From Folioceros fuciformis (Eukaryota), in assembly GCA_049999805.1 (NCBI GenBank), contig JBNGIO010006293.1, positions 70,747 to 119,170 on the forward strand: a stretch of 48,424 nt of DNA, read 5' to 3'. The notes below the pieces were generated by a model. It ran no database searches and was not told the origin of the DNA. It worked only from the letters and a program-made list of their open reading frames with translations. This document shows positions 4,126 to 37,560 of the stretch, one piece after another (position 1 is the stretch's first letter; the number at the start of each line of letters is the position of its first letter). Both the position numbers and the translations under genes were made by a program.

Positions 4126-4572
4126 TTCCAGGCCGGCCTGCTTTCACATATCCAAGCGCATCCCATTACTGGTCCCCGCACAAATCCTGCCCTCCCGCCT
4201 GCAAACGTGCGCAGGCAGCGTCGGAATCTGCATGCTGATTTCCGTGCGCCCAGGCCATGGCAGTGTTGCTCCAGCTGTGACACATGTTCATTCCATCTCC
4301 TCTAGCAGCCCATGATGCGTGAATTGCGAGAATGCACTTTCCTTGCGTTTCAGATTCGAGTGCGGTCTCAAAACCTTGTGGAGGACTCTGCAATCTCAAT
4401 CTCTCTTGGCCCACACCGGTGGTTTGGATGGGATGTGTGAATTTGGATCAACAAGGGATACTCCATGTCGAGTGGATGGCTTTATTTTGGGCACTGCGTG
4501 CTGAATGAGTTACTTTCCTCCTGTGTCTGACGCATCTTCGTTGGCTAGGGGAGGAGGAAAGGGGAAGGGATA

Positions 4573-7500
4573 ATGGAGGAAGGGCCCGGCTCGCCTGTGG
4601 TCAGGAGGGAGGCGGGGGCTGCCACTCTGGCAGACGAGGCTGCGGAAGGTGTCCATTCCATCTCCTTGAGGCTTTTCAAGAGTCGCGGGAGAGACGCGAA
4701 CGGGGACCTCGGCCAGGAGAACCGGGACAGCACTCTGGTCATGATGAAATGTATGGAGGAGTATTTTCGCGAGTGTGAGAGGCTCGGCCTTGTGATGGAT
4801 GATGCGCTGCTTCAGCAGGCCTTGGAATTGTTCAGGAAGGTTAGGTGTCCGTTGCTCACCAATGTGGACGCCACGGAGACTAGCCGCGGGGTGGAGCGGA
4901 TCTGGGGCCCGTGCTTGCTCTACACCGTGAAGAGGTTGAGTGGCGTGGTCTCTGGTGAGGGAAAGAACGGATCTTGCTTCACCCTTTCTCAGCTTTTGCA
5001 GATCACCAGGCTGAGTGTGGTGGAATTCTACAAGGAGCTTGCGCAGTTTGTCTCCAAGGTCGGCCCCACAATGAAGACCTTGTTCGGAGAGGACTACGAG
5101 AGGAGGCTACAGATCAGGGAATCGCAGACCAACTTTGCACATCTCGGGGTGTTGTTCAGTTATTACAAGCGTGTGTACCAGGATTATTTTCTCGGGTTGG
5201 AAAGCCCTGCGCCGTCACGGCCGGGATCTAAGTTCAGTCTCCACGTGCAGTTTGGCTGGCTGCTGTTTCTGGTGCTCAGGGTCCGCGTGCTACCGCAGTT
5301 CACCGACCTGGTGACCTGCACTAATGGCCTTCTTGCTGTGATCACGACCATGATCCTGCACATGCCGCCAGCCCTGAGGAAGGTGTCTGCGGACGATTCC
5401 AGCAAGTTTGCTGTCAGGACTCCGGAAGGGGTCAATGTGATTGCCTCTTTGTGCCACCTGTACTACGCGTCTGAAAAGGATGTGTCGGACATGGTTGAGA
5501 AGGCTGGGTCCATGATATCAGACATATTGCACAGGAGCCACGGCCTGTCGATTGCCACTCGGGGTGGGCAGGTCTACGGATTCAGCACTGATGGTGTGCC
5601 CTATTTTCAGGGCTTGATGGAGGATGGGCGCTTGGCTAGCAATCTGGATTCTCTGGAAAGGGACTATGAGCTTTTCCATGAAGCTCAGGGGGAGCTGGAT
5701 GAGAGAGTTTTTATCAGGGAGGATGAGACGTTGATTGGAGCTACGTCCCTGAGTTCCTTGAGTGTCTCGGGGGTGAAACGCAAGTTTGATGCCATGTCTT
5801 CTCCACAGCATGTCACCGGAGCATCGGCAGGGACTTCTCCTCTCGGCACTCTTAACTCCCCTTGCTCATCTCCGCTGAAAGGGGAATCAGTTGCAGTTGC
5901 TTCTAGCAAGATGCCCCCTCCAACACCAGTCACCACAAGTATGACAACTGCCAAGTGGTTTCGCACTGTTATTGCTCCTCTACCCTCGGAGCCTTCTGCT
6001 GAGCTTCTGCAGGCTTTTCGATCTTGTGATCATGATGTGACCAGTGACATCCGAACCAGGGTACAAATTCTGATGGAAGGCATTTTTTCGAGCAGTGCAG
6101 CAGGAAACTGGCGAGTCTGGGGAGGAGCCAGAGGCACTGCTCTGACGGACTCTATTTGGGCAGTGCAGCGAAGGATGGAAGCAACAAAGTTATACTACAA
6201 GGTGCTGGGCGCTATGTGCAGATCTGAGGCACAGAGACAGCCCGGGAGTAATTTAACTTCTCTTCTTACCAATGAGAGATTCCACCGCTGCATGATAGCT
6301 TGCTCTGCAGAGCTTGTTCTTGCAACGCACAAAACGGTGACAATGACTTTCCATGCAGTTCTTGAGGCAACAGGTATAACTGCATTTGATTTAAGCAAAG
6401 TTATTGAGGGGTTTGTAAGGTACGAAGAGACCCTACCAAGAGAACTGAAGAGGCATTTGAACTCTTTAGAAGAACGGCTTCTGGAGAGCATGGCATGGGA
6501 GCGAGGGTCATCGATGTACAACTCCTTACTTGTGGCCAAGCCATCTTTTGCTGCAGAAATCAACAGGTTATGTTTGCTACCAGAGCCAATGCCATCATTG
6601 GATGTACCGATTGTAGGAATTTTGCAGCGACATTCAGCAGAGGGAGTAGGTGGGGAGATAGCTGCATCTCCTCCCAGGCCATCAGTGGGCTGGGGAGGGA
6701 AGGGAAGTATTGGAATTCTGGGCTCCTCAGAACAACCAGGGATGTCCAGTTTAAGATCTCCTGCGAAGGAAAGGCCATCTGCCTTTTCGGCTTTCACCTC
6801 TCCTCTCAAGGGCCGGATGCAGCCTAGCTTGCAATCTCAGTTTGCCAGCCCTCAGAGGCCCGGACCTCTGGGTGGTGGTGAAACCTGCGCAGAAATCGTG
6901 ATAAATGTCTTCTTCCAAAAGGTTCTCAAGCTTGCTGCTATCAGGATACGGAGCCTGTGCGAGCGTCTCCAGGTCGCCAATGCAATTATGGAACAGGTGT
7001 TCGGCACAATGAAACAGATGTTGCACAATGGAACAAGTGTGTTCTTCAATCGGCACATTGACCAACTCATACTTTGCTGCATCTATGGAGTCTGCAAGGT
7101 GAGCAGAGTTAATGTTACGTTTCGGGACATCATTTTCCATTATCGGAAACAGCCACAGTGCAAGCCTAATGTATTCAGGAATGTCTTCATTGACTCTCCC
7201 TCCATGAGACGAACAGGGAAAGCTTCAGGTCAGGAGGCAGGGACTGGAGATATTATCCGCTTCTACAATGAAGTGTTCGTTCCCACGGCCAAGGTCTTCC
7301 TACTGCGCCCGGGGTCTAATGGGACTTCTTCTTTGTCTACTGGAGAGAGTGCAGAAGGTTCGGGTTCTGATGGCCAGCCCCCCGAAGGAGCAGAGCCTTC
7401 CACTTTCCCAACCTTGCCTGATATGTCTCCCAAGAAGGTGTCAGCCACACACAATGTGTTCGTGTCACCGCTGCGAGCAATGAAGATGGACTTCATAATG

Positions 7501-7797
7501 TCACCTCACACTCGCAGTCTCTATGCCTGTGTGGGGGAGAGCACACATGCGTACCAAAGCCCTTCCAAAGACCTATCTGCCATCAACAGCCGACTCAACA
7601 ACAGCAGACGCCTGGATTTCGGTGACAATCCTCTGGTGAGGGAGAGGGACCCTCCTACGGCTCGTGCAGCAGCAGAAGAGTCCAGTTACCCGAGCAGCTC
7701 TCGTGGCGGTGTCAACCCCTCGGGGGTCCCTCAGCAGTCTCAGGCTACTCCTTGGACCAGCTCGAAGGGGGTTATTCCTGCTCCCAAGACTTCTTGA
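4573..7797 (+). CDS. RBR: Retinoblastoma-related protein (1074 aa), single coding exon
   Basis: RB-N region (FGWLLFL, DLVTCTNGL), pocket A (TPVTTSMTTAKW, LYYKVL, FHRCMIACSAELV, ITAFDLSKVIEGFVRYE, LLESMAW), pocket B (FFNRHIDQLILCCIYG, DIIRFYNEVF), PDMSPKKVSATHNVFVSPLR, C-terminal RRLDF and many S/T-P CDK sites. Confidence 0.97.
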   Translation: MEEGPGSPVVRREAGAATLADEAAEGVHSISLRLFKSRGRDANGDLGQENRDSTLVMMKCMEEYFRECERLGLVMDDALLQQALELFRKVRCPLLTNVDATETSRGVERIWGPCLLYTVKRLSGVVSGEGKNGSCFTLSQLLQITRLSVVEFYKELAQFVSKVGPTMKTLFGEDYERRLQIRESQTNFAHLGVLFSYYKRVYQDYFLGLESPAPSRPGSKFSLHVQFGWLLFLVLRVRVLPQFTDLVTCTNGLLAVITTMILHMPPALRKVSADDSSKFAVRTPEGVNVIASLCHLYYASEKDVSDMVEKAGSMISDILHRSHGLSIATRGGQVYGFSTDGVPYFQGLMEDGRLASNLDSLERDYELFHEAQGELDERVFIREDETLIGATSLSSLSVSGVKRKFDAMSSPQHVTGASAGTSPLGTLNSPCSSPLKGESVAVASSKMPPPTPVTTSMTTAKWFRTVIAPLPSEPSAELLQAFRSCDHDVTSDIRTRVQILMEGIFSSSAAGNWRVWGGARGTALTDSIWAVQRRMEATKLYYKVLGAMCRSEAQRQPGSNLTSLLTNERFHRCMIACSAELVLATHKTVTMTFHAVLEATGITAFDLSKVIEGFVRYEETLPRELKRHLNSLEERLLESMAWERGSSMYNSLLVAKPSFAAEINRLCLLPEPMPSLDVPIVGILQRHSAEGVGGEIAASPPRPSVGWGGKGSIGILGSSEQPGMSSLRSPAKERPSAFSAFTSPLKGRMQPSLQSQFASPQRPGPLGGGETCAEIVINVFFQKVLKLAAIRIRSLCERLQVANAIMEQVFGTMKQMLHNGTSVFFNRHIDQLILCCIYGVCKVSRVNVTFRDIIFHYRKQPQCKPNVFRNVFIDSPSMRRTGKASGQEAGTGDIIRFYNEVFVPTAKVFLLRPGSNGTSSLSTGESAEGSGSDGQPPEGAEPSTFPTLPDMSPKKVSATHNVFVSPLRAMKMDFIMSPHTRSLYACVGESTHAYQSPSKDLSAINSRLNNSRRLDFGDNPLVRERDPPTARAAAEESSYPSSSRGGVNPSGVPQQSQATPWTSSKGVIPAPKTS

Positions 7798-15546: not shown

Positions 15547-16635
15547 TCAGTTCACAAACTGTACACCGGGAATGCTGCCAAGCCCCTTGTGGAGCTGATT
15601 CGCACATTCTGCAATCAACTTGGACATATTCCTGTAGGATAGATCTGTGACTCCTGCAATGTGAGGGGTCAGCAAAACCTTGGGATGTTGGACAATCGGA
15701 TCTGAAGGGTCAAACGGTTCATACCAAGCAACATCCATGGCCAGGCCACCCAGGTGACCAGAGTCCAAGGCATCCTTCACTGCTTGGTAGTCCAGCAGGC
15801 CCCCTCTGGCAACGTTTATCAGTCTGGCCCCCGGCTTGAAGCTGGCAAGGAGCTTTGCATCCACAATCCCTTGCGTCTCTTTTGTCAGGGTGCAGCAGGT
15901 GAATACGACATCAGCACGGCTGGCGAATCGGTGGAGATCCTGCCTACTGCCTTTCTCGTGGATGATCTGGTCTGACAGTGGTTGGGCACCAGTAGGCTCC
16001 TTGTCCCAAAACTGGCTGATCACCAAAATTCGGACGCCAAACACACTAAGCCGGAGTATGAGCTCCTTGCTGATGTTGCCATACCCGATGATGAGCACCG
16101 TTTTCCCATACAGAGTCTCTCCGACTGGTTCGCCAAGTCTCCGAAGAGAAACGCTTTCCGCCATGGCCTTCTGATCTCTGAGCAGCCCGAAGATGAGATA
16201 CAGCGCGTGCTCTGCACAGGATAGGGCATTGCCCGTCCCGTCACTAGTGATTTTGGCCACCTTGATTCCTCTGTGGCTCGCCGCCGGAACGTCCACCCCT
16301 TCCAGACCTACGCCGTACTGGATTATAAGCTTGAGGTGTTTCGCACGGGCGATGACAGCCTCATCCAGAACAGCCATTCTCACAACGCACATGTCATAGT
16401 CAGAAATTCTGCCAGGCACATCCTCCCGTGGACAAAAGTCGATCTTCACGTGCGGGAAGGGCTTTACAGCTTCTTGCGTGAACTCAACAGCTGCAGGGAA
16501 CTCCACACCGCAGAAGAGCACCTTCACCAAAGCTTCCTCTGGACTTGTGCTCTCATCTGCACTTGCCGACGGTGCAATAGCCTGCCAGCTGCCACGGCAT
16601 CGTGGTGCATCCTCCTCCCGGATTGCAGTCACCAT
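15547..16635 (-). CDS. D-isomer-specific 2-hydroxyacid dehydrogenase (At1g72190-like, from memory), single coding exon; first in-frame ATG 16635, ORF open further upstream
   Basis: VLFCG, QYGVGLEGVD, GNALSCAE, Rossmann GYGNIS, INVARG, DVAWYEP and TPHIAG catalytic motifs. Confidence 0.92.
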   Translation of the reverse strand: MVTAIREEDAPRCRGSWQAIAPSASADESTSPEEALVKVLFCGVEFPAAVEFTQEAVKPFPHVKIDFCPREDVPGRISDYDMCVVRMAVLDEAVIARAKHLKLIIQYGVGLEGVDVPAASHRGIKVAKITSDGTGNALSCAEHALYLIFGLLRDQKAMAESVSLRRLGEPVGETLYGKTVLIIGYGNISKELILRLSVFGVRILVISQFWDKEPTGAQPLSDQIIHEKGSRQDLHRFASRADVVFTCCTLTKETQGIVDAKLLASFKPGARLINVARGGLLDYQAVKDALDSGHLGGLAMDVAWYEPFDPSDPIVQHPKVLLTPHIAGVTDLSYRNMSKLIAECANQLHKGLGSIPGVQFVN

Positions 16636-17875
16636 CCTCAGCAGCGCTCTGGGCCTGGCACACCCCGCCTCCAATGATCGGCGTGTACAAGACGCAGATT
16701 TCGCAAACACGTCCAGCTGCTGCAAAGCGCAATTCTGTCAGTACGTGTACAGGGGCTGGAAACCTAAACAGAGCGGCTGTCGTTATCAGCGAGATCGAGC
16801 TTAGCTCACTCGCATCATCGCTTGCCCCAGATGCTGAATATCGCTGGTTTCGCTGCGTAGCAAAACGTCGCGCAAGGTCCGTATCCTCATTCTGAACTCT
16901 CCACCTCTGGACGAGGGGCGTGCAGGCAAATGTGTCCAAAGCATGTTTGATTTTGGTTCGAATCGCATGATGGCTTAGTGGAAACGGACACAATTTATGA
17001 GTATATGGGATTAAGCATCTTGCACTGAAATTCTACTAAGATAGATGGCAAAGGTAAAGGATTCCTTTCTTTGGAACAAGTAACTAGGTATACCACAGAA
17101 TGATTATAAGTACCAAAGTCTCATGACAAAAATTAGTGCTTAGTCTAATAGATTTCATCCCCACAATCTTCCTTCTTTGCCACCCTCACATTTGGGGCAC
17201 TCAAATGCCTTTCCACCCACAAATTCATGCGTAATTCTCATGTCTTGCCATCCCCACAAAGTGAGGGGCACCTATGGATCACTTATTCTTGACTTGAGGT
17301 GTATTGTGTTTTTGTTGTATATGAAGAATCACCTCCTTTCCTAGACAAGAGGAATCATCTTCTTTACTCGAGAAAAACAAAATGGGAAATTCATCTACCT
17401 TGGATGAGATGAGATGGGTTTAGGGTTTAGGGAGACAAACCACCTAGGTGATTGGGTTACTTGGGACTACTAGCCTTAAAGCTGCTGAACCTGTAAACTA
17501 CCAATAGCACCCAAGATACCATTGTTCATGAAGAGGAAGGGTTTACTTACCATTGGAATTGTTGACACTTGCCTCCTTGTCATTGTGGTTGTCTTTGTAT
17601 GGAACTGACAAATGCCGCACTATAGTGCAATGGAAACCCTCTTAATGAAAGAACACTACAATACACTCAACAAAGAAAGACCAAGCATGTGTTTACTTGT
17701 TGTAAATCACTTTAGTGTAGGTCATCAAAAACTTGAAAAATGCCTTGCACATATCTTGATGGCAAGGAGAACAAAGAAGTGTCCAACCTTCAAAGGGGTG
17801 TACTTGTGAAGTTTGGCCAATGCGCTCCCCTTGAGTGTTCAACCTAAATAGTTGACAACAACTTGCTCCCGAACT

Positions 17876-18640: not shown

Positions 18641-19254
18641 TTGTTCTCTTTGGAAAAAAAAGGTAAGCCCGGAGTATATGGCCACTTCCAAGATGGTTGT
18701 ATTTGTGGTCATTTATATGTACATATAAAGCCATTTATGTGATTTATGGAGGAATGTTTTAGCGTTCATTAAGGCTAATGGTAAAGCTAGCAAATGTGGT
18801 AGGCTTCCTTTTTAAGCTATAAAATATATTCCATGCTTTGTGAACGGCAGAAAACATTGTAAATATAAATATCAAAACAATTTTAAACACAAAGAGATAA
18901 ATAAGTTTTCCGTTATTCCCTAATGATTTGAGAGCTTATTAGTTTACAAATACGTTCAAAATAAAAAAATTTCATCCGATGCAATGCAGTAACGGGTTGA
19001 GTCCCAACTATAACCCGATGCAAATGCGGAGAATTAGGCTGGCAGGAGCATCGACCGCAAAGAGAGCAACCCTATCCAATCGTCCCTCTTGGCTCTCTAT
19101 CCTGTCACTTTGCGAAAGAGAGCGAGCGAGCCCAGGCTGCACAGTGCTGCAGCGGTGAGGACGAATCCGGCTCGGCACTTCGTGCATTTGCGTTGCCATT
19201 GCCCATTCCCCCGCGTGCCCCGGGACCAGCAGTGAGCTCGGAGCAGCAGCAGCG

Positions 19255-19830
19255 ATGGCGGCAGCCGCGCAGGCGTCTCTGGCCAGCGGCCGCCTGGTGT
19301 CCAGCCAGAGCAGCCGGCTGTGCATCAGTAGCAGCAAGGGCCAGCACCTTGGCGTGGCGGTGAGAGCGCCGGCAATGCCGGCGATGCGGGCCACCAGGCC
19401 CGCGGGAGGGGCGCTCAATGTGGCGGCTACAGCGACCGTGGACGTGGAGAAGCTGGACCGGCTGGTGGATCTCGTGAAGGCACTCACCCTGGCGGAGGCC
19501 AGAGTGCTGACGGACAGGCTGCAGGAAGAGCTCGGAGTGAGCGCGGCAGCATTCGCTCCCGCCGCGGTTGGCGGCGCGGCGGCTCCGGCCGAGGCTGCGC
19601 CGGTCGTGGAGGAACAGACAGAGTTCGACGTGCTGCTGGAGGAGGTACCGAGCTCTGCTAGGATCGCTGTCATCAAGGTTGTGCGCGCTCTCACCAGCCT
19701 AGGGTTGAAGGAGGCCAAGGACCTCATCGAGGGTCTGCCAAAGAAGGTGAAGGAGGCGGTGTCCAAGGATGATGCGGAAGACGCAAAAAAGCAGTTGGAA
19801 GCCGCCGGCGCCAAGATCAGCATCAAGTGA
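19255..19830 (+). CDS. RPL12: Plastid 50S ribosomal protein L12 with transit peptide
   Basis: Ala/Ser/Arg-rich N-terminus; [51 protein letters not shown]. Confidence 0.96.
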
Positions 19831-20736
19831 TTAACCTTTCAGCTGCATCTCCTCCCCGCCGCCCCGCTCGCACCACCCGCGGGTCGGGTTTGGTCTGCGC
19901 CTGAGCCGCCATTGCTGCCTCTTCAACCACTTCCTACAGCAGCCTGAGAGCGTTAGTCACGCTAGAATGTAGGATTAGATATCCTAAGTTAGAGAAGTGA
20001 TGCTGCGGGACGAGTGTCCCCAAGGTAGGCACGCTCTTTTCTGTTCAAAGAGGACTTGTTGTTTGCCACGGTGAAGGATGGTGCGGGCATGATGTGCAGG
20101 AGGTTGAAGTTCTGGCTTGGGAAACACCCTTCTCTGAGTATCAGTAATTGGTTCTTGTTGGTGAGCTTGCTGAGTAGATAATACAGCTGTGCGCAAGCAT
20201 GGTAGCACGACATCTTCTCAAATTTGCAAATTCGTGTGCATGCTCTCGGTTCTTCACATTTGCCTCCAGTCCGATTTGATTGCAGACTATCAAAGCCGTG
20301 CTTGGTTGGCAACTTTTATCGTCCAAGGTACTCATACCATTTACAAAACTCTTTTCCTGGAAGTTTGCACATTCTTGAATTGGAAAGGTTGGTGAAATGG
20401 GTGCCGCCGGATCCAGGTCTGAAACCCTAAAAGTGAGCCACCCGTCTACGCAATTGGTGTTCGCACTTGGAGATGTGTTACAGCTGCTTACATTTCTCAC
20501 CAGTAAAGTCACACGAGGTCCAGACAGATGGCACTCTGGTGGCAGATGGTTCGCCCCCTTTGCCTCAGGAGCACTGGTTTCAAGCCGTCAAGGCCAGCCA
20601 GATTGTAGTGAGTATGGCAGTGTAGTGAAGGGACCCGACGCTCTCACCTTCGAAGCAGGGCGAAAATCTCAGAGGCTTGGGCTCCTTTGTGCAATTTGTA
20701 GCATAGTGCGGACTTTGCAGGACGCGGGGACTGAAA

Positions 20737-23519: not shown

Positions 23520-25262
23520 CTATTTGAGCCTGATGACAGAGAGGTGAGGAAGAGTGTTCTCCACTGCTGCTGGAGTTACCTTGCAGGAGTGCAGACTGAG
23601 AGAACAAAGCTGTTTCAGCGGTTTGAGATGTTGCAGCCCTGCATTGGTTACCCTGGAGTTGCCCACGTTGAGAGAGACAAGAGAGGTCATTCCAGAAAGA
23701 TACTGGAGAGCGTTGTCTGTCAGATTAACGTTCTGGGACAAGTTTAAGGAGGTCAAGGCTGTGAGATCCCTGATATGCTTGACACCTGTATCAGTGATCC
23801 CTCCTCCGCACAGTTCCAAAGACTCCAGCTTCTTGAAGTGTCGAAGACTCAAAGCGCCATTGTCCGTTATCCGAGCTCCGAACAAATCCAGGTGCTTCAA
23901 ACCTGTCAAGTTCACAAGCTGCCTCACTCCAGAATCCGTAATGTTTCGAGAATCCAAATTGAGCGACACCAGGGAACGGATCTGCGCTATCCTGCGCATG
24001 CCGTCATCCGACACCTCGGTGAAGGACAGATTAAGGCTCTCCAAGCTCTTGAGACCCGTCAAGTACCGCAGGCCCGCGTCCCCCACCATGCAGTCGGACA
24101 GGTCCAGCTTCCTCAGCTTCCCCAGGCCAGTCAAGTGCGATAGAGCATGGTTGCCTATCTTGCATGAGTCCAAGATCAACGTCTCCAGCTTGATGAGCAT
24201 CTTGAGGAAGGAGAGGCCCCCGTCCGTCACCCTGGAGTAGGCCAAATTCAGGTACCTGAGCTCCGCCAGCGCCTCCATATTCGGCGACCCGAAGTCCGCA
24301 CAATCACACGACCTGGCATCCAGATGCTCCAGCAGCTCCATGCCGCAAAGAGTGTCCAAGCATCCTGCCGTCACCGGACAGCCTTCCATGCACAAGGTCC
24401 TGAGTTCCTTCAGCCCCCCAAGCCACGCAAAACCCCGGTCATCCACCTTGCAGCGCGAAATCTGCAGCTCCCGCAGCCTCACCAGCCCGGAGATGTGCTT
24501 GATGTCAGAATTGCGCACCGAGTTGCACCAGCCAAGGTTGAGCCTCTCCAGCGCTATAAGCCCCGAGACATGCACCAGACCGCCGTGGATCATCTGGCAC
24601 CTCTCCAGGTCAAGGCTCCTCAGATTCACGAGACACGCCAGATTCCGCATCCCGACAGCCGTGATCAGGCTACTCCCTTTCAAGCTCAAGCTGGTGAGAT
24701 TCCGGAGCCCCCCGAAGCCGTGCAGCCCCGCGTCGGTCACCAAATGGCAGAAACTGATGGAAAGCGTCTCCAGATTGCAACAATTCCTCAAGCAAGCAAG
24801 CCCCGCATCCGTCACCAGCGACCCCGTCACATCGACCCCGAGCAGCGACTCTCCCTGCGTCCCAATCACCTCCAGCCACTCGTCCGTGACCCCGGGGTAC
24901 TCCCGCAACAGCACGTCCTGCAGCGCGCAGTCCCGGAACGCCTGCAGCACTTCCCGACACAGCCGCCGCCTTGCCACAAGCTCATCCAACACTTGCTGGC
25001 TCAAATCCCTCGGGAGGATGTGCAGGGATGACCAATTCTCCACCGTGTCGCACATCCGCTGCACCGCCAGCGTCAGCAGCGTGGGACGCTGCTGCTCCTG
25101 CTGCTCCCGCTCCCGCCGCAGCGCCTCTCCTCCTTCCGCCTTGGCCGGCCATTTCAGACTAACGCTGCTCAATTTCGCTGATCCCCCGCCACCCCCCCGC
25201 TGCAATTCCTCCCCCTCTCCGCCGCCCTGCAGGTCTCGCTTCCTGGAGCACACCCCTCCCAT
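23520..25262 (-). CDS. RNI-like/AMN1-type leucine-rich repeat protein with an N-terminal myristoylation/palmitoylation signal (At1g15740-like, from memory), single coding exon
   Basis: MGGVCSRKR, LPRDLSQQ, AFRDCALQD, YPGVTDEW and about 16 repeats of LxxLxLxxxxVTDxG. Candidate 5'UTR intron 25346-25580. Confidence 0.93.
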   Translation of the reverse strand: MGGVCSRKRDLQGGGEGEELQRGGGGGSAKLSSVSLKWPAKAEGGEALRREREQQEQQRPTLLTLAVQRMCDTVENWSSLHILPRDLSQQVLDELVARRRLCREVLQAFRDCALQDVLLREYPGVTDEWLEVIGTQGESLLGVDVTGSLVTDAGLACLRNCCNLETLSISFCHLVTDAGLHGFGGLRNLTSLSLKGSSLITAVGMRNLACLVNLRSLDLERCQMIHGGLVHVSGLIALERLNLGWCNSVRNSDIKHISGLVRLRELQISRCKVDDRGFAWLGGLKELRTLCMEGCPVTAGCLDTLCGMELLEHLDARSCDCADFGSPNMEALAELRYLNLAYSRVTDGGLSFLKMLIKLETLILDSCKIGNHALSHLTGLGKLRKLDLSDCMVGDAGLRYLTGLKSLESLNLSFTEVSDDGMRRIAQIRSLVSLNLDSRNITDSGVRQLVNLTGLKHLDLFGARITDNGALSLRHFKKLESLELCGGGITDTGVKHIRDLTALTSLNLSQNVNLTDNALQYLSGMTSLVSLNVGNSRVTNAGLQHLKPLKQLCSLSLHSCKVTPAAVENTLPHLSVIRLK

Positions 25263-26045
25263 GCTCGATTATTCCCGGAACCTTCTCGGCCGGCCCTGCT
25301 ACCGCGACGCCAACTGCATGGCCAGCCTTGGCTTCACGATCCAACCTGAAGCTAGTCCCGCTCACATGCCGAGCACCGTCCACGGCCCAGGCACACGCCT
25401 GGGCTCCGATTCCTGCCCCTTCCCGACCCCCCGTCTCTGCGAGGCTTACGGCCACCTTTCCCCATCGGTGCATGCGAAAAAAGGAGAGAGGGAACGGAGG
25501 GAGGTGGTGGTGGGACTCGCGTGTTCCGCTTCCATGTCCTACGTGAGCCTCTTGCGTGGCGTGATTCTCAGGTAACTTACCATTTCCGGCCTCTCATGTA
25601 TGTACAGGTATGTAGGCCCTTTCGCCAGAATCTCATCAGAACCCATTCCCCTCGCATTCCGGCTCCTTTTTTTATCATCCATCGTGGCTTATATCACACC
25701 TCGAAGCATTGGAAACACTTATGTACTTATCCATATTTCTTAATATGCGTGATTTCCGTCAACGTTATCTCTTACGACGAAGCGGTGGGATATTTCTCCA
25801 TTTCCGACATCGTGGGTGCTGCGACGGGCGCATGGGCCCTGCATAGATTCCTTTTCATTTTTCATGCGGGGAATTGAAAGTGAGAGGATCTCGAGTTCCG
25901 CGATTTCATTGGCATCGCAAACTTCAGTATGCTGGTTGTACATCACGATGCCACATCTCCAGATAAAACCCATTGTCAATTTGCTTTTTTTTTTCCAACT
26001 AATATTGAATATAATTAGGGCTTTACATTCCAGGAATGGTATTGT

Positions 26046-29800: not shown

Positions 29801-30874
29801 CTGGCGAGTGGGAGAATGGGAGAGAAGAAGAATTTTTGTTAAAGTAAGGATGGATTTCCATCCAAGGCTTGACCCTTGTATCAAGGTATATTGTACCTAG
29901 CTACTTGCTCCGAGGGACCCATCTAAGTAAGGATCCCGTATGCTTAATCCTGAAGTTCTGAGTTCATTTGGCCTTAGCTTCTCTGGGTTCCTCTCAAAGT
30001 TGTTGCAGAATTCAAGCGTTAGGGAGGTACTTATCATGTACCTACGGGATGTAGAAAACTGGATGACTTTGAGGCTGCAGAGAGTTCTTGTGAGGAGTTT
30101 GGGAGGCCAAAATGTGTGCATGCAGTGAGTGTCTTGAACTTGGCGGTGTTGTGGAATCAGAAGCAGTCTGCTGCTTCCAGAAATTCCATTGAAGCAGGTG
30201 ACACAGGCTGCTGGAAATGGTTGGTCCACGAAGGTGCGGATGCACAGTTCACGTCTTTGCTGTCTCCTTCGTCACGGAATTGTATTGGATTGTCTCCGCG
30301 ATTTAGAGGAGCGGTGGCCAGGGTGCTGGACGCGCGGCTAGTTCCCACTGCCCACAACAAGACTTTGTCCCATTGCAGACCTGCACGAGATGTAGCGTGT
30401 GCTCAGAAGGCTGACGGCCTGCCAAACAGCACCCATCAACTTTCAATCGTTGTGTTCTCCTCCATCTCAAGAGAAGGTAGCTGGAGCTGGAGTGTGCTGG
30501 GGCACGGAGGCAGCAGCCTGCTGCAGGAAGGTTGGAGTGGTAGCAGGAATAGATGCATCCGGAGAGTTGAAAACAGAAGGGAAAATGATACATCTTGTCT
30601 GCCATGATGTCTTGTCAATCTAGCGGGGCCTTTGTAGTGGATCCTCTCATGCTTGCTCTTCAGTAGAATCGATAATGACATGGCAGCCCATCTCCGGGAG
30701 CTACTGCCCCAAAACAGAACAGCAACACTGTGACACCGGGAATATTTTATTCAGGAATTTTCTTGGGGTCGTCCTTGTCTCACGATGACACCGCTGGTGG
30801 TGCTACTGCCGGCGATGTTGCAAGCGGCTGACCGTCATGTGTCACACTCATGTTACGTCAACGGTCCCTGAACG

Positions 30875-33529
30875 ATGGCCACAGTATGGCAACCGGACCT
30901 GTTTTGGACCCAACAAATTGGAATGTGCGCAGGGATCGCTGCCCACAGTCATTCCGGTAGAGAATTTCCGGCAAACAACGTACACAGGATCAGCGCTGTG
31001 AGGAAATGTGTGGGTGGGGACGGGATTGCCAAAGATGGCCGTTGCCAGGAGCAGTTTTGGCAACAATTGTTTCTGGATCCTACCATGTGGTGGGACAACA
31101 GACGGGAACAGAAGAGCTCCCGTTCGCCTGGCTTCCGGTGCAAGAGGTCCAGCAAGGTCCTGTGGTCAAACAACGTGGTTAAGCCAGCTTTGGTTGATGA
31201 GCAGCTCGTTTCCTCGGATATCCAAATGGGTCATGGTGATTCTCCTTCCAATTCGGGCTATCGTGATAAGCCTGTGCCTGGCAGGTGTGCAGGATCGAGA
31301 TTGGGTGTCGTAACTGCTGGAGCAGTGAGCATGGCATGTCAGCAAGGGAAGCTTTGTGATGCCGTTGGAGCTCTGGAATCTCTGGCCCAGTCAGGTTCTG
31401 CCATTTCCCAGTCTCTGCTATATACAGTGCTAAAACTGTGTACAGCTAAGAAGGACTTGGTTGTTGGGCGACGCGTTCATGATCTAACTGCCAAACTGGG
31501 GTATGAGTCGAGTGCTTACTTGGGGAACCATGTATTGCGAATGTACGCATGTGGAGGTAGGCTGCAGGAGGCCATGAATGTGTTCACCAGGGTGGGCAAA
31601 CCAAACGTCTTCATGTGGTTTTCCATCATCTCTGCACATGCGAAGCATGGGCAACCTGAGGAGGCCATACACCTGTACCATGAGATGCGTGGGTCAGGAG
31701 TGAGGGCGAATAGTCATGTCTTTGTAGCTGCCCTTCAGGCTTGCGCATTTGCAACGGATTTGGATTCTGGCAGAAAAGTGCACCGTGATGTTTTGCACAG
31801 TGGCACTCCCATTGACTTGTTTGTTGGCAACTCCCTGGTGGACATGTATGCCAAATGCGGGGAACTGAAAGATGCACGCCAGGTTTCTGAAAGCATGGCC
31901 AAAACGGATGTAGTGACATGGACGACGCTGATATCTGGGTACGCAAGACGTGGTGAAATGGAAGATGCCCGCCAGGTTTTTGATAGCATGAACGCAAAGA
32001 ATGTAATGACATGGACTGCCCTGATAGCTGGGTATGCCCAGCAAGGGCTGGGACATGAGGCGCTTGCTGTGTATGGACGAATGGAGGCGGAGGGCCTCAT
32101 TTTGGCTGACCATGTCACTTTTGCCTGCCTTCTGAAAGCCTGTGCAAGCGCTTGCGCCTTACAGAAGGGCAGGCAGCTGCACTCGCAGATTGTCGAAAGA
32201 GGACTGCTGGATAACGTAGTGGTGGGCACCTGCCTGGTGGACATGTATGCAAAATGTGGTGAACTGGAAGATGCACATCAGGTTTTCAACAGATTGGCGA
32301 CCAAGAATGTGGTGACATGGAATGCCCTGATTGCTGGGTACGCACAGCAAAGGCTTGGCCAAGAGGCGATTGTGCTGTATGGACAAATGGAGGAGGCGGG
32401 CCTCATTCTGGCTGACCATGTTACTTTTGCTTGCCTTGTGAAGGTCTGTGGCAGCAATGGTGCCTTACAGAAGGGCAGGCAGCTGCACTCACAGGTTGTT
32501 GAAAGAGGACTGCTGGATAACTTAATGTTGGGAACCTGCTTGGTAGACATGTATGCAAAATGCGGGGAACTGGAGGATGCACGCCAGGTATTCGATAGCA
32601 TGAACACGAAGGATGTGGTAACATGGACTGCTCTGATATCTGGGTATGGTACTTGCGATGAAGGTCACAAGGCGCTCGCTTGCTTGGAGGAGATGCTCGT
32701 TGCGGGTATTCAGCCTAACGATGCTACTTTTACTTGCCTTTTAGCAGCATGCAGCCATGCGGGACTGGTGCACGAGGGCCGCAAGTACTTTGCTTCCATG
32801 GCCCAACAGCACGGCATCAACCCTACTATCGAGCATCACATTTGCATGGTTGATCTTCTCGGGCGTGCAGGGCACTTGGATGAAGCAGAGCAAATGCTCC
32901 TGTCATGTGAGGGCCAAAGTAATGTTGTGGGCCTGACGTCCTTGTTAAATGCCTGCAGAAGTCACGGGGACATTGCAAGGGCAGTGTGGTGTTTTGAAAA
33001 CATCGTCAGGCTGGACCCTCAGGACGCATCTGCATACGTCCTCATGGCCAATGCGTATGCAGATGCAGGTAGGTGGACCGACGTCGACAGGGTTGGAACA
33101 CGGAGAACTTTAGCAGGAGCTAACAAGAAACCTGCAGTGGCCTGCATCGAGGTGAACAAGCAGATACATAGATTTGTGGTGGGGGACAGGGGAGAGGATG
33201 TCGCCCTTACAGTAGAGACCACGAACTCACGTCTGAAGCAGGAAGGGGGCCACGTACCTCACACAGAGCTGGTGTTGCAGCCACTGTGTGAGAAGGAAAA
33301 GGAAGACGCCCTCTGTGGGCATGCTGAGAAACTAGCTCTGGCGTTTGGTCTCTTGCACACTCCCAGTGGGACACCCCTGATGGTAACGAAGAACCTTCGC
33401 ATGTGCAGTGACTGCCACAGTTCGACTGAAATCATGTCCAGGCTTGAAAAGAGAGCCATTGTTGTAAGGGATGGGTACCGTGTGCATCGATTTGCAGCTG
33501 GTTCTTGCACTTGTAAGGGTCGACCGTGA
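30875..33529 (+). CDS. PLS-class pentatricopeptide repeat protein with E1-E2-DYW:KP (GRP-ending) domain; candidate organellar U-to-C editing factor
   Basis: About 15 P/L/S motifs ending in P2-L2-S2, then E1/E2. KPAVA replaces the PG box; HAEKLA...KNLRMCSDCH Zn site; C-terminus SCTCKGRP. Intronless, 884 aa. Confidence 0.95.
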   Translation: MATVWQPDLFWTQQIGMCAGIAAHSHSGREFPANNVHRISAVRKCVGGDGIAKDGRCQEQFWQQLFLDPTMWWDNRREQKSSRSPGFRCKRSSKVLWSNNVVKPALVDEQLVSSDIQMGHGDSPSNSGYRDKPVPGRCAGSRLGVVTAGAVSMACQQGKLCDAVGALESLAQSGSAISQSLLYTVLKLCTAKKDLVVGRRVHDLTAKLGYESSAYLGNHVLRMYACGGRLQEAMNVFTRVGKPNVFMWFSIISAHAKHGQPEEAIHLYHEMRGSGVRANSHVFVAALQACAFATDLDSGRKVHRDVLHSGTPIDLFVGNSLVDMYAKCGELKDARQVSESMAKTDVVTWTTLISGYARRGEMEDARQVFDSMNAKNVMTWTALIAGYAQQGLGHEALAVYGRMEAEGLILADHVTFACLLKACASACALQKGRQLHSQIVERGLLDNVVVGTCLVDMYAKCGELEDAHQVFNRLATKNVVTWNALIAGYAQQRLGQEAIVLYGQMEEAGLILADHVTFACLVKVCGSNGALQKGRQLHSQVVERGLLDNLMLGTCLVDMYAKCGELEDARQVFDSMNTKDVVTWTALISGYGTCDEGHKALACLEEMLVAGIQPNDATFTCLLAACSHAGLVHEGRKYFASMAQQHGINPTIEHHICMVDLLGRAGHLDEAEQMLLSCEGQSNVVGLTSLLNACRSHGDIARAVWCFENIVRLDPQDASAYVLMANAYADAGRWTDVDRVGTRRTLAGANKKPAVACIEVNKQIHRFVVGDRGEDVALTVETTNSRLKQEGGHVPHTELVLQPLCEKEKEDALCGHAEKLALAFGLLHTPSGTPLMVTKNLRMCSDCHSSTEIMSRLEKRAIVVRDGYRVHRFAAGSCTCKGRP

Positions 33530-34901: not shown

Positions 34902-37560
34902 ATGATTATGCAGGATGATTTTGACTTTGGTGGAGACGATGGCGATGATAACAAAGGTGTAGGTTAGTGTGTTTGCTAGTGCTTCACAGATTGTTGGAGG
35001 ATTTTTATTCCTGGTTTTGACTTTCCTTTCTTTTTTTTGTGGTAAATACGGTCGCAGGTGGAAAGAGAGCCTTCTCGGAGCTTGATGATGAGGACGAAGA
35101 GATATACCCCGCAAAAAAGGTATTCCTGAGAGTTTCCTTGCCACGGTTTTCTTCTTCTTGGATTAAGTGGGTCAGTCTATTGTTTGCATGGTAACGGTCT
35201 CCTGTGTGGCTGGGACAAGAGTTGGCTGTTATACTGGGCTGGTATTGGGTCATACTGACCTGGAAGTTTTGCATATGGAAAGATCTACGGNNNNNNNNNN
35301 NNNNNNNNNNNNNNNNNNNNNNNNNNNNNNNNNNNNNNNNNNNNNNNNNNNNNNNNNNNNNNNNNNNNNNNNNNNNNNNNNNNNNNNNNNGTGGTTCACT
35401 TGGTGCAGCTCCTGATCATGCTACCACCACGATCCTTAATCTGCGAGCCAGGTATGGGGCACATTTCCTTTTCAACGAAATGTGCAATGCAAGACGAAAA
35501 TGTACGTCAGTTTCTTGTTGCTGACGTGTGGGATGTATGTATTTCGGCTTGTTGCAGCCTTGCTGATCGAGAATCTGCAATCAAGTCTTTGCAGGTGCGA
35601 GCATGAGAATTTTTCCGCTGCTGCTCTGTTGTAGGCTTTGAATGACGTTAGAGCTTGCTGCGTGGTTTGGCAGCCGTATCTTGATAGTGAACTGAGACTC
35701 CTGTGAGCAGGGAACTCTCGATTCCACAACAGCAAACCTTGAGCGGTGGCATGCGGCCTTTCGCGATGAACCTTTCATGTCGGCTGATTCTGCCCCAGGT
35801 AAAGTCATGGTCTTATAGTCTGGACACGAGCCTTTCTGTCATTATTTCAGTTTGTCCAGGCAGCAGCATCTTCCTTTGACAGAGAAGTATGGTGGATACT
35901 CTCGTACATGGGACTTTTTTCTCAAAGTGTGTTGTTCGTGATTCAGTCAAAAAGTGTCTCATTTTGGATTGCTCTGTCTGGCTGTAGAACCTGAAGCGGT
36001 TGTGCAGGAATTGCAGCGCCTTAGCAACTCTGAACGCCAGATGAAAGAACAGGTGTTGCTCAGTAAACGGAGAGAGGGTGCTATGATTGTTAAGCTAGCA
36101 TCAAAGGAGCAAGAACTAAATGAAGTGAAGGTGAGAGGGACCTTGTAATGCAAAGTTTGCAAATCCCACAGTTTCCGTCTGAGTTTCTGGTCGAAAGAAT
36201 AGATCTGGTGATCTTCCAGTCGTGTGCCATGTGACATCGAACCTAAGTGATCTATAATAGTTTTCCTGGATATGCGTGTAGGCCTACACCAATGACCTGA
36301 AGCAGATGGTGAAGCCTCCCATGTTGCAGGTACATGTCGTGAATCCCCTGACATGGATGATTCCATGCCTTGTGGTTCACCACCTAATGCCTGGAATTTG
36401 TTTTTGCTACTAGGCTAGACAGCTCCTCCTTGATCCGGCTATATACGCAGAGTTCACCCGCATGAAGGTATAACCTTTACAAGCCGCATTTCATTCCGAG
36501 TGGCACAATAACTATGACCATATTAAGGGACATTACAAAACCGGTGATTTTTTTGTTGACAGTCACAACTGGAGGCGGGGGAGAAAAGAGTGAAAGAACT
36601 TCAAGATGATTTGGCTGCTATTCAATTTACTCCTCACAGCAAGAATGGCAAGATGCTGATGGCCAAATGTCGTACGTTACAAGAGGAGAATGAGGAGATC
36701 GGAAGGGAGGCATCGGAAGGGAAGGTACGATCTTGTAACTACAGTTGGGCTTTCGACGAGCTGTGGCCACATACTGTGGTTGATGCTCTTCACCCTGCAC
36801 CGGGTTTCTTCCTGTATCATCAACCGATTCCATTTGCGGATGTGGTATCCCATGCAGATACATGAATTGGAGACGAAGTTGGCAGTTCAAAAGTCTCTCA
36901 ACGCAGAATTGAAACGGGGATACCAAGGTGAGGACCATGCTGTCATGCTGTCACTAAGGCAGAACACCATTCCAGGGATGAACTTGAAATGTCTTCGTTC
37001 TTCAGCTTCTCATCCGATCTGGTGTGTATACTTCCGGGAATTGCAGAGCTGTTCGATTATGTGGAGGATCTTATCGATGACGCAGAAAAACATCAGCAAA
37101 TGGTACGGTTCTATCCTTATTTGTTCTGATCACATTTCTTGGTTACTCATCGTGCTGACCATCTTCACACCTGCACCTGTAGGTCCATATTTTGCAGCGC
37201 CAGCTGCTGCATGTGCAGAGGGAGCTTAAGCAAGCTGAGTTTCGCAAGGCGAAAGAATCACGGGACACGAAGGAACGTGACGAGGACCGAGCTAGGCAGC
37301 TAGACGCCAAGAGAGATATGGAGCATAGTGGGAGGGAGGATGAGAGGGACAGAGAGAGATCAGATCGTGACCGAGGAGATCGGGATCGAGACAGGGATAG
37401 GGACAGAGACCGTGAAAGGGATCGTGAGCGCGAGAGGGAGCGAGATCGGGACCGAGAGCGAGATCGAGACAGGGATAGGGACAGAGATCGAGATGGGAGG
37501 GATCGTGACCGTGATCGCGATCGAGATAGAGATCGCAAGAGTGTGGACAGGAAACGATGA
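34902..37560 (+). CDS. FIP37: FKBP12-interacting protein 37 / WTAP homolog (m6A writer subunit), about 12 exons, interrupted by an assembly gap; start 34902 or 34908
   Basis: DDFDFGGD, KRAFSELDDEDEEI, ILNLR, ERWHAAF, KRREGAMIVKLASKEQE, RQLLLDPAI..EFTRMK, ELQDDLAAIQFTPHSKNGKMLMAKCRTLQEENEEIG, IHELETKLAVQKS; GT-AG introns. Confidence 0.92.
35291..35390. other. Assembly gap (100 N) inside FIP37
   Basis: N run; it probably hides the acceptor of the third coding exon. Confidence 0.95.
37345..37536 (+). repeat. Coding (RD/RE)n dipeptide repeat in the FIP37 last exon
   Basis: About 30 Arg-Asp/Glu pairs with varied codons (CGAGAT, AGGGAC, CGTGAC, AGAGAT). Confidence 0.9.

Follow-up and report, generated by a model that had tools for sequence, protein, structure and literature searches.

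Programmable C-to-U and U-to-C RNA editors are based on PLS-class PPR proteins of seed-free plants, and PLS-class PPR editors are usually viewed as a transit peptide followed by repeats and a deaminase. A gene of Folioceros fuciformis raises the question of what a motif resembling that of OSB proteins (for organellar single-stranded DNA binding) is doing ahead of the repeats of such an editor. The gene lies in a stretch of 48,424 nucleotides (contig JBNGIO010006293.1, positions 70,747 to 119,170 of the forward strand; hereafter the window), which we number from its first letter. A sequence-only reading had placed an OSB-type PDF-like motif at 31055..31207, at the N-terminus of a U-to-C-type PPR protein, and had noted that PDF reads PGF there. 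We find the peptide exactly at this position, upstream of a PPR tract that starts near residue 148, and PGF can be read directly in the protein, P0001.

Architecture of the window protein

The features of the gene are as follows.

30875..33529, + strand: whole coding sequence of P0001, a single uninterrupted, intronless open reading frame of 884 amino acids plus stop
30875..31030, + strand: presequence, residues 1-52, presumably organelle-targeting; composition 4 K/R, 3 D/E, 5 S/T
31031..31225, + strand: PDF-like module, residues 53-117 (OSB-only HMM, phmmer, AF2)
31055..31207, + strand: core of the PDF-like module, residues 61-111, taking in the F61 and L111 codons in full
31088-31102, + strand: WWDNR of the PDF-like module (sequence)
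31127-31144, + strand: PGF(RCK) of the PDF-like module (sequence)
31211..31318, + strand: linker, residues 113-148, low-complexity and G/S/P-rich (sequence), outside the HMM match, probably flexible
31316..32962, + strand: PLS-type PPR array, about residues 148-696 (Pfam PPR, PPR_1, PPR_2 and PPR_3, 7-11 stretches each; first PPR-like helices read from the sequence)
32963..33151, + strand: E motif, residues 697-759 (PF20431, E 2.2e-12), its end overlapping the KP box
33128..33526, + strand: DYW:KP domain, residues 752-884 (PF14432; Pfam DYW_deaminase 792-882, E 8.4e-31)

Pfam, with E values of 5e-71 and less for the PPR families, and reading of the sequence together give the architecture PDF-PLS-E-DYW:KP. 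The last domain carries K752-P753 replacing PG, H816-A-E818, K839, C844-SDC-H848 and the C-terminal G882-R-P884, which appear in the sequence as KKPAVACIE, HAE, CSDCH and an end in CKGRP; counting from the 133-aa domain, K839 is probably the residue known as 'Lys88'. The gene looks functional, with the reading frame intact and KP, HAE, K839 and CxDCH all in place. A stop codon lies just upstream of M1, at 30869-30871.

With KP for PG, HAE for HSE and a C-terminal GRP, P0001 agrees with the GRP variant as set out in excerpts of two reports (PMC9478123, PMC11845758): it is a PLS-class, GRP-type DYW:KP protein. Its PLS array, its E motif and KP box, HAE, CxDCH and the C-terminal GRP are shared with the hornwort DYW:KP 'GRP' PPR proteins, candidate U-to-C editors and the basis of the designer proteins KP2 and KP3. 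It differs from them in its N-terminus, since the excerpts describe no domain before the PLS array (PMC9478123, PMC11845758); the PDF module is present on only some GRP-type relatives.

Homology to the OSB PDF motif

Profile comparison bore out the resemblance to OSB PDF motifs. An HMM built from OSB copies only (72 motif copies, all from 34 SSB-bearing proteins, found using the window motif and carrying SSB domains and OSB names that are independent of it) matched residues 53-119 of P0001 with 55.5 bits (E 2.2e-19 at Z=1). Shuffled copies of the PDF-like stretch, 2000 in number, reached at most 10.9 bits with this HMM, by which chance similarity is rejected, and all other six-frame segments of the window stayed at or below 6.9 bits.

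When residues 50-118 were compared by phmmer with 1,835,955,588 representative proteins, 202 proteins were found at E<=1e-3, 43 at E<=1e-10 and 3 at E<=1e-30. An SSB domain (PF00436, E<=1e-3) lay N-terminal to the match in 34 of the best 150 of these 202 proteins, several of the 34 assignments being below the Pfam gathering score. Matches named as OSB proteins include 'protein OSB1, mitochondrial-like' from Populus, 'organellar single-stranded DNA binding protein 3' from Euphorbia, 'OSB2, chloroplastic' from Brachypodium and 'OSB3' from Musa; E values against the OSB1, OSB2 and OSB3 representatives P0049, P0050, P0072 and P0079 were between 1.3e-9 and 4.7e-7 in this library of 1.84 billion. 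What P0001 and the OSB proteins have in common is a motif of about 50 amino acids, W..(L/F)F..P..WWDNR..K....P.F..K....LW....P..V...L, and by its sequence the PDF-like stretch of P0001 is truly homologous to the PDF motif of OSB proteins.

The layout of an OSB protein is absent from P0001. There is no central OB-fold (the SSB domain PF00436 was not found by Pfam, even at E<=10), and the PDF module, which is C-terminal in OSBs, lies before the PPR array, at residues 53-117 of 884. Searches of other kinds with the N-terminal region returned little: Pfam, which has no model for the motif, gave no family at E<=10 for the N-terminal 152 amino acids, a PDB sequence search gave no match at E<=10, and a word-indexed search with the same 152 residues gave 232 candidates, of which 0 were at E<=0.01. 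The family was recovered by exhaustive protein search together with profile search.

A family of PDF-PPR fusions in seed-free plants

P0001 is one of many such fusions. Among 317 PDF-bearing proteins, 84 are PPR proteins with an N-terminal PDF module ahead of the PLS array, and none of the 317 combines SSB and PPR. The 84 come from a lycophyte, ferns, Sphagnum mosses and a liverwort, together with the GRP-ending relatives. In the lycophyte Diphasiastrum complanatum, the module is found on 25 of the 31 PLS proteins among the best 120 full-length homologues; further fusions are in Sphagnum, Calypogeia fissa and Adiantum records, and the Pteridium representative is an ORF from a fern transcriptome, so that the architecture is expressed there. 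E-type PPR proteins carry the module as well. No PDF motif was found in 24 gymnosperm PPR homologues (7 from Cryptomeria and 17 with the prefix Gb_, probably Ginkgo), and in this survey the fusions are confined to seed-free plants.

In PPR proteins, the motif is N-terminal (median relative position 0.13) and present in 1-3 copies, the first starting at a median of residue 52.5 (range 1-181), whereas in OSBs it is C-terminal (median relative position 0.71) and present in 1-13 copies. Tandem copies with linkers, as in OSB proteins, occur in P0004, P0216 and P0224, and the beads-on-a-string layout of PDF-PPR N-termini resembles that of OSB C-termini. P0001 fits this family, in which 1-3 PDF modules stand between presequence and PLS array, and its motif falls in a PPR-linked clade. 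Its closest homologue by identity, P0324 (53%), also has a GRP end and a well-kept PDF copy at residues 57-122 (74.6 bits).

The PPR-linked PDF motifs form clades separate from those of OSB proteins. In a tree built from 434 non-redundant PDF copies, the label PPR or SSB changes 3 times; label shuffles gave 47-53 changes (five reported of 200). The P0001 copy belongs to a clade that holds 10 PPR-linked and 2 unclassified copies and none linked to SSB (support 95), and an AU test did not reject a single clade that unites all PPR-linked copies (p 0.815; 21 rows versus 89). These copies show residue preferences of their own, for example F22, D25, S27 and Q28. A recent capture of an OSB exon was rejected because the PPR-linked copies form their own clades.

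These fusions apparently constitute a large family that has not previously been described. Our literature searches found the PDF motif nowhere linked with PPR proteins, though hornwort PPR surveys or the PPR database may contain an earlier description. The text of an OSB family paper of 2026 mentions PPR 0 times, and a kingdom-wide survey of editing factors of the same year mentions 'OSB' and 'single-stranded' 0 times. PPR proteins with RRM, LAGLIDADG, SMR, NYN, CBS and SAP domains likewise join a helical-repeat RNA reader to a small nucleic-acid-related module. In the excerpt of a review of Physcomitrium PPR proteins in which these accessory domains are listed, however, there is no PDF or OSB entry (PMC9459714). 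They are mostly on P-class proteins, whereas the PDF module is N-terminal on PLS-class, editing-type proteins.

A possible tethered single-strand-binding helper

The reading that we favour, tentatively and at somewhat less than even chances, is that the diverged PDF module belongs to a PPR-specific lineage, goes back to an old fusion, was not acquired for U-to-C chemistry and serves as a tethered single-strand-binding helper. PPR tracts lie on their RNA with the N-terminal repeats toward the 5' side of the target. The module, tied by a probably flexible linker of about 35 residues upstream of the PLS array in an intact DYW:KP (GRP-type) editing factor, would therefore be placed beside the RNA immediately 5' of the sequence that is recognised. 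As to binding, its ligand and the influence on editing, we propose that the module would add sequence-unspecific affinity for single-stranded nucleic acid, and this added affinity would either raise occupancy or keep the site unfolded. It would have been inherited from an old fusion common to the PLS proteins of lycophytes, ferns, mosses and liverworts.

The activity itself has precedents in OSBs. According to excerpts of two reviews, the PDF motif of AtOSB1 is sufficient for ssDNA binding (PMC6963530), and ssDNA binding of OSBs is due to their PDF motifs (PMC4166229). OSB1 and OSB2 prefer ssDNA over RNA in the excerpt of the latter (PMC4166229), which makes RNA as the ligand of the module a guess.

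Structure prediction is consistent with a small folded unit. From an input alignment dominated by intact PDF copies, AF2 modelled the module with a pLDDT of 82 and a pTM of 0.60, and the model suggests a unit of helix, beta-hairpin and helix. With this model, the best Foldseek match in the PDB had an E value of only 9.7, and VIA-align over 48,161 chains gave a best Z of 3.8, with none standing out; as there is no solved relative of the predicted fold, the fold lends no function to the module. Feature matches of residues 50-120 to phage clusters in the ESM Atlas had a best score of 0.79, below a meaningful level, and were discarded.

The copy in P0001 has lost several residues that are otherwise nearly invariant. 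Conservation was reckoned over 496 other copies, and four positions conserved in more than 90% of them are changed in P0001: K36 to Q, D43 to G, H46 to C and W62 to L; K45 is also replaced, by R. K36 is lysine in 96-100% of copies and W62 tryptophan in 92-96%, and for the aspartate of PDF the figures are 91% (380 SSB-linked copies) and 97% (116 PPR-linked copies), with glycine at 0%. P-G-F retains the proline and phenylalanine of the Pro-Asp-Phe signature, after which the motif is called (PMC6963530). In all, 15 conserved positions are retained, these two among them: W19, P26, W29, W30, D31, N32, R33, P42, F44, K47, L53, W54, P60, V63 and L67. When 17 copies were scored with the OSB-only HMM, the two lowest of the PPR-linked ones were GRP-type (P0001 with 55.5 and P0126 with 50.7 bits), the others lying at 62-87 bits. 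The P0001 copy is among the most degenerate, which fits relaxed constraint, and the loss of four near-invariant residues suggests that its binding activity is weakened or altered.

Such a picture could also mean that a true PDF homologue is decaying in this gene, with no function left, and that the protein is an ordinary DYW:KP editor. The four changes are non-conservative, the one copy that scores lower, P0126, is GRP-type and degenerate too, and the GRP-type relatives P0336 and P0353 lack the module. Nevertheless, we consider decay unlikely: the reading frame is open across the whole N-terminus, the 15 positions named above are kept, the HMM score still amounts to 55 bits, and the AF2 model, for all that its alignment was dominated by intact copies, reaches a pLDDT of 82.

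If the module bound ssDNA as in OSBs, it could keep the editor at nucleoids or transcription bubbles and so couple editing to transcription, which comes close to an idea of the sequence-only reading. The preference of OSB PDF motifs for ssDNA over RNA, as given in the excerpts cited above (PMC4166229, PMC6963530), and a linker that is probably flexible enough speak for such a DNA tether. We regard it as improbable, however, since the PPR-linked copies stand in their own clades with their own preferences at F22, D25, S27 and Q28, from which it follows that the ligand may have changed, and since the P0001 copy is degenerate.

It is less probable still that the PDF unit serves to form oligomers, or to dock onto OSBs or other factors, and has no part in nucleic-acid binding. 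AtOSB2 is a tetramer according to an excerpt (PMC6963530), and multi-copy arrays could serve as scaffolds, but ssDNA binding is assigned to the motif itself in the excerpts of both OSB reviews (PMC6963530, PMC4166229). A homodimer prediction of the module scored 0.02, the mark being 0.32, which counts neither for nor against a dimer.

We see hardly any chance that translation begins downstream, at M118 or M154, and that the motif is part of an untranslated leader. The presequence is not obviously transit-peptide-like, which would agree with a later start; however, a motif that scores 55 bits at the protein level, in frame and continuous with the PPR reading frame, would not persist in a leader, homologues (one of them a fern transcript ORF) share the layout with 1-181 residues before the motif, and a stop codon lies just upstream of M1.

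Sequencing runs gave some observations on this part of the window. Exact-match contigs of run X1 have a depth of about 7 and also cover the intergenic stretch 30300-30783, and thus resemble DNA. At 85% likeness, many paralogous contigs lie over 30870-31211 (17-59 per run at single positions), and runs X2 and X5 have no contig upstream of 30756. This hints, if only weakly, that the likeness within the family begins close to the ATG of P0001.

Implications for editing machinery

A tethered helper would bear on how editors of seed-free plants are understood. The PDF-PPR fusions would extend the known role of the PDF motif past DNA maintenance, and if dozens of natural editors carry a conserved OSB-type single-strand-binding module that folds on its own, a part of the editing machinery would have been overlooked. 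How these proteins manage without MORF cofactors could find its explanation here, and the module could be a ready-made accessory for synthetic editors. The MORF/RIP cofactors of seed plants, which are non-specific helpers of PLS-class editing factors, offer a possible analogy of function only; in contrast to the PDF module they act in trans, and their sequence is unrelated to it.

On a bolder view, which we hold to be rather doubtful, PLS-class RNA-editing factors have in the PDF module their own cis-acting helper, which binds single strands, arose in one ancient fusion before the bryophyte/vascular split and persists in every seed-free lineage, its place having been taken by the trans-acting MORF proteins in seed plants. 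If this were true, early land plants would have recruited a motif of DNA maintenance into their editing machinery, and the 'simple' editosomes of a single protein would bring along a cofactor of their own.

Relation to U-to-C editing

For the U-to-C question the result is negative: the PDF module is no signature of KP-type proteins, and the copy in P0001 is among the most eroded. The sequence-only reading had suggested that the module could assist the U-to-C reaction; a special tie of the module to U-to-C editing is not supported. The same module is on 84 PPR proteins, which are mostly canonical where a deaminase is present. A CxxCH deaminase signature occurs in 25 of the 84, and of these 20 end in DYW, 2 in DSW and 3 in GRP with HAE; in other words, 22 of the 25 are HSE/DYW-type and 3 are KP-type.

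The idea that DYW:KP proteins in particular have the module, as an aid to the reverse (amination) reaction, is thereby largely refuted, and it is the least credible of the readings considered here: three GRP-type HAE proteins do have the module (P0001, P0126 and P0324), but so do the 22 HSE/DYW-type proteins, E-type proteins, and proteins of mosses and a liverwort. In the excerpt of the work on designer KP proteins, these edit U to C without a PDF module, their N-terminus being a thioredoxin/His tag followed by PLS repeats (PMC9478123). Close GRP-type relatives lack it as well. Of the three closest by identity, P0324 carries the motif and P0336 and P0353 are without it, and the module is therefore dispensable in the GRP-type subfamily.

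P0001 and its C-terminal domain

The window's PPR protein, P0001, is encoded by a single frame with a stop codon directly 5' of it (30869–30871), and Pfam detects PPR families in it at E values of 5e-71 and below. Its main features are:

30875–33529, + strand: uninterrupted P0001 open reading frame, 884 codons
P0001 residues 697–759: E motif (Pfam)
P0001 residues 792–882: DYW deaminase domain (Pfam, E 8.4e-31)

Read directly, the C-terminal domain starts with K752-P753, which is PG in canonical proteins, and H816-A-E818 takes the place of HSE; K839 and C844-SDC-H848 are retained, and the protein ends in G-R-P. These are exactly the marks of DYW:KP proteins given in excerpts of PMC9478123 and PMC11845758, in which 'GRP' is one of two hornwort variants of the class. 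This match makes P0001 a candidate U-to-C editor of the hornwort type, and with KP, HAE and the GRP end all present, its description as a U-to-C-type PPR protein in the sequence-only reading was correct.

The N-terminal module is homologous to the OSB PDF motif

The first 152 residues of P0001 contain no Pfam family, Pfam having no model for the PDF stretch; with the N-terminal part as query, a PDB sequence search retrieved nothing similar and a first word-indexed protein search gave no match. An exhaustive phmmer search of 1.84 billion representative proteins with residues 50–118 matched 202 proteins at E ≤ 1e-3, of which 43 reach E ≤ 1e-10 and 3 reach E ≤ 1e-30; in many, 2–12 stretches are matched. 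Among the 150 matches listed, 34 carry a Pfam SSB domain N-terminal to the PDF matches (E ≤ 1e-3, several calls scoring under the Pfam gathering score), 13 are PPR proteins matched close to their N-terminal end, one is a kinesin model and 102 lack a credible family assignment. Source names of the SSB-type matches include 'protein OSB1, mitochondrial-like' (Populus nigra), 'organellar single-stranded DNA binding protein 3' (Euphorbia peplus), 'protein OSB2, chloroplastic' (Brachypodium) and 'protein OSB3' (Musa).

An OSB-only profile, trained on 72 copies of the motif taken from the 34 proteins with an SSB domain, gave residues 53–119 of P0001 a score of 55.5 bits (single-sequence E 2.2e-19), as against at most 10.9 bits for 2000 shuffles of the stretch and 6.9 bits for the next best six-frame segment in the window. 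The profile is slightly biased, as its training copies had themselves been retrieved with the window's motif; their SSB domains and OSB names are independent of that motif. This significant profile match makes the stretch a genuine homologue of the PDF motif, as had been proposed for 31055–31207, which corresponds exactly to F61 to L111. In contrast to OSB proteins, P0001 has no SSB domain and carries the motif at the opposite end; by its domain content it is not an OSB protein but a PPR protein of the DYW:KP type that carries an additional module.

Distribution of the PDF-PPR architecture

A second profile, made from 14 PPR-linked copies, matched 990 of 8000 scored proteins at E ≤ 1e-3. PPR families occur in 37 of the 120 matches listed (36 from the lycophyte Diphasiastrum complanatum, one from the fern Adiantum), five of them with a DYW domain; the remainder are mostly OSB-named angiosperm proteins. 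By the OSB-only profile, 33 of the best 120 full-length homologues of P0001 bear the motif.

PDF motif among the best 120 full-length P0001 homologues
Diphasiastrum complanatum: 25 of 31
Adiantum: 2 of 19, weak and partial
Ceratopteris: 0 of 9
Cryptomeria: 0 of 7
eukprot 'Gb_' records, by our inference probably Ginkgo: 0 of 17

The other six bearers are two Sphagnum proteins, two moss-looking records, P0401 from the liverwort Calypogeia fissa, and P0324, a GRP-ending protein that is the nearest listed homologue by identity (53% over 94%) and has its PDF copy at residues 57–122 (74.6 bits). The same profile finds no motif in the close GRP-type relatives P0336 and P0353. In D. complanatum, the module is the rule rather than the exception among P0001's best PLS homologues, many of which end in CGDYW. 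Named records further place the fusion in Sphagnum fallax, S. compactum, Adiantum and Pteridium aquilinum; the Pteridium record (P0081) is an ORF from a transcriptome, which shows that a fern transcribes this architecture.

The motif is present in 317 of 418 collected proteins, 84 of PPR class (1–3 copies, median relative position 0.13), 153 of SSB class (1–13 copies, median 0.71) and 80 of neither; none combines SSB and PPR. In PPR-class proteins, the median start of the first motif is residue 52.5 (range 1–181), so that the 52-residue presequence of P0001 is typical. Both architectures include expanded arrays: P0003 (Kingdonia uniflora, 1160 aa) has at least nine copies by phmmer, one SSB-class protein has 13 by profile, and the PPR protein P0004 (1371 aa) has three at its N-terminus. 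The sole mid-protein case of PPR class among the collected proteins, P0222 (D. complanatum, 1362 aa; residues 671–744), probably reflects a gene model that joins two tandem PDF-PPR genes; the PDF-bearing P0061 (kinesin, Coptis) and P0029 ('Interactor of constitutive active ROPs 2', Striga) have the look of fused models too.

At 85% likeness, window positions 30870–31211 recur in dozens of distinct contigs per sequencing run (X1, X2, X5 and X17; 17–59 at single positions), which hints at many close paralogues with a presequence and PDF N-terminus in related organisms.

Among the papers covered by our literature search, none connects the PDF motif with PPR proteins; an earlier description may exist. 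PPR goes unmentioned in a 2026 study of the OSB family, as does OSB in a 2026 survey of editing factors across 364 genomes, and a Physcomitrium PPR review (PMC9459714), as excerpted, gives RRM, LAGLIDADG, SMR, NYN, CBS and SAP as extra domains and no PDF. On these searches, the architecture appears undescribed but widespread.

Origin of the fusion

In a FastTree phylogeny of 434 PDF copies (thinned to <80% identity, 57 columns), the PPR/SSB label changes three times, compared with 47–53 times in the five printed of 200 shuffles, and 51 of 55 PPR-linked copies fall within two SSB-free clades. The window copy belongs to the smaller one (10 PPR-linked and two unclassified copies, support 95), together with P0004, P0126, P0324, P0097, P0080, P0042 and the fern copies P0066 and P0081. 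With 21 PPR-linked and 89 SSB-linked copies in IQ-TREE, a single clade for all PPR-linked copies was not rejected by the AU test (p 0.815), the constrained tree having the higher likelihood. Given the brevity of the motif, these trees go no further than being compatible with a single old fusion and making a recent capture from an OSB gene unlikely. The survey of 364 genomes confines MORF genes to seed plants, which complements the seed-free spread of PDF-PPR proteins in our sample and prompts a bolder and less likely reading, in which an anciently fused, built-in editing helper would have been replaced by MORF in seed plants.

Condition of the window's copy

In an alignment with 380 copies linked to SSB and 116 others linked to PPR, the window's copy keeps 15 of the most strongly conserved positions (W19, P26, W29, W30, D31, N32, R33, P42, F44, K47, L53, W54, P60, V63 and L67) and deviates at five conserved columns.

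Deviations of the window's PDF copy
Column 36: K to Q (K in 96–100%)
Column 43, the D of 'PDF': D to G (D in 91–97%, G in 0%)
Column 45: K to R (K in 80–83%)
Column 46: H to C (H in 73–96%)
Column 62: W to L (W in 92–96%)

Copies from 13 other PPR proteins score 50.7–87.0 bits with the OSB-only profile, the two lowest scores overall, P0001 included, belonging to the two GRP-ending proteins then in the sample, P0001 (55.5) and P0126 (50.7). The window's copy is a rather eroded member of the architecture.

Possible function of the module

An AlphaFold2 model from a 26-sequence alignment is compact (mean pLDDT 82, pTM 0.60), with helices at 3–15 and 53–64 and short strands at 20–22 and 35–37; neither Foldseek against the PDB (best E 9.7) nor VIA-align over 48,161 chains (best Z 3.8) found a relative. 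The module is separated from the first PPR-like helices by 36 residues that fall outside the profile match, are rich in G, S and P, and are read as a flexible tether. PPR arrays lie on RNA with their N-terminal repeats toward the 5' side, so that a tethered N-terminal single-strand binder would be placed beside the RNA immediately 5' of the recognised sequence. According to excerpts of two reviews, the PDF motif of AtOSB1 alone is enough for ssDNA binding (PMC6963530), and OSBs owe to their PDF motifs an ssDNA binding that is preferred over dsDNA and RNA (PMC4166229). We tentatively favour, at somewhat short of even confidence, a module that came with the family and adds non-specific single-strand binding as a helper, probably weakened in the window's copy.

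A functionless relic in the P0001 gene is the likeliest of the alternatives, though itself unlikely. The tether to ssDNA or nucleoids first proposed for this stretch would draw on the ssDNA preference of OSBs and seems rather improbable. We give little credence to a protein–protein module, for which a homodimer prediction (score 0.02 against a mark of 0.32) is evidence in neither direction. That the stretch is an untranslated leader, outside the translated protein, is very improbable for an uninterrupted frame with a presequence of typical length.

Least probable, and hardly credible, is a helper specific to U-to-C editing. A CxxCH signature lies near the C-terminus in 25 of the 84 PDF-PPR proteins, the others being E-type or truncated models; these 25 end in DYW (20), DSW (2) or GRP (3) and have HSE (22) or HAE (3). 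Because the sample grew out of searches with the window's sequence, any bias in it would be toward KP-type proteins. Designer KP proteins, moreover, edit U-to-C without a PDF-like module (PMC9478123, excerpt). A tie between the module and U-to-C editing is not supported.

Neighbouring loci

Three further genes can each be read as one long ORF:

667–1815, + strand: protein kinase domain gene
15547–16737, − strand: D-2-hydroxyacid dehydrogenase gene
23520–25268, − strand: LRR protein gene, 582 aa

The window holds 200 N overall; a run around 35290–35420, seen as X in translations, marks an assembly gap downstream of the P0001 gene. At 19159–19830 (+ strand), a gene for a ribosomal protein L7/L12 of organellar type (Ribosomal_L12_N, Ribosomal_L12) encodes an Ala/Ser-rich presequence and is overlapped by a long antisense ORF (19008–19838, − strand). 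A retinoblastoma-related protein (RB_A, RB_B, DUF3452) can be read at 4549–7797 (+ strand) in a single open frame of 1082 codons, a strikingly intron-poor layout for such a gene.
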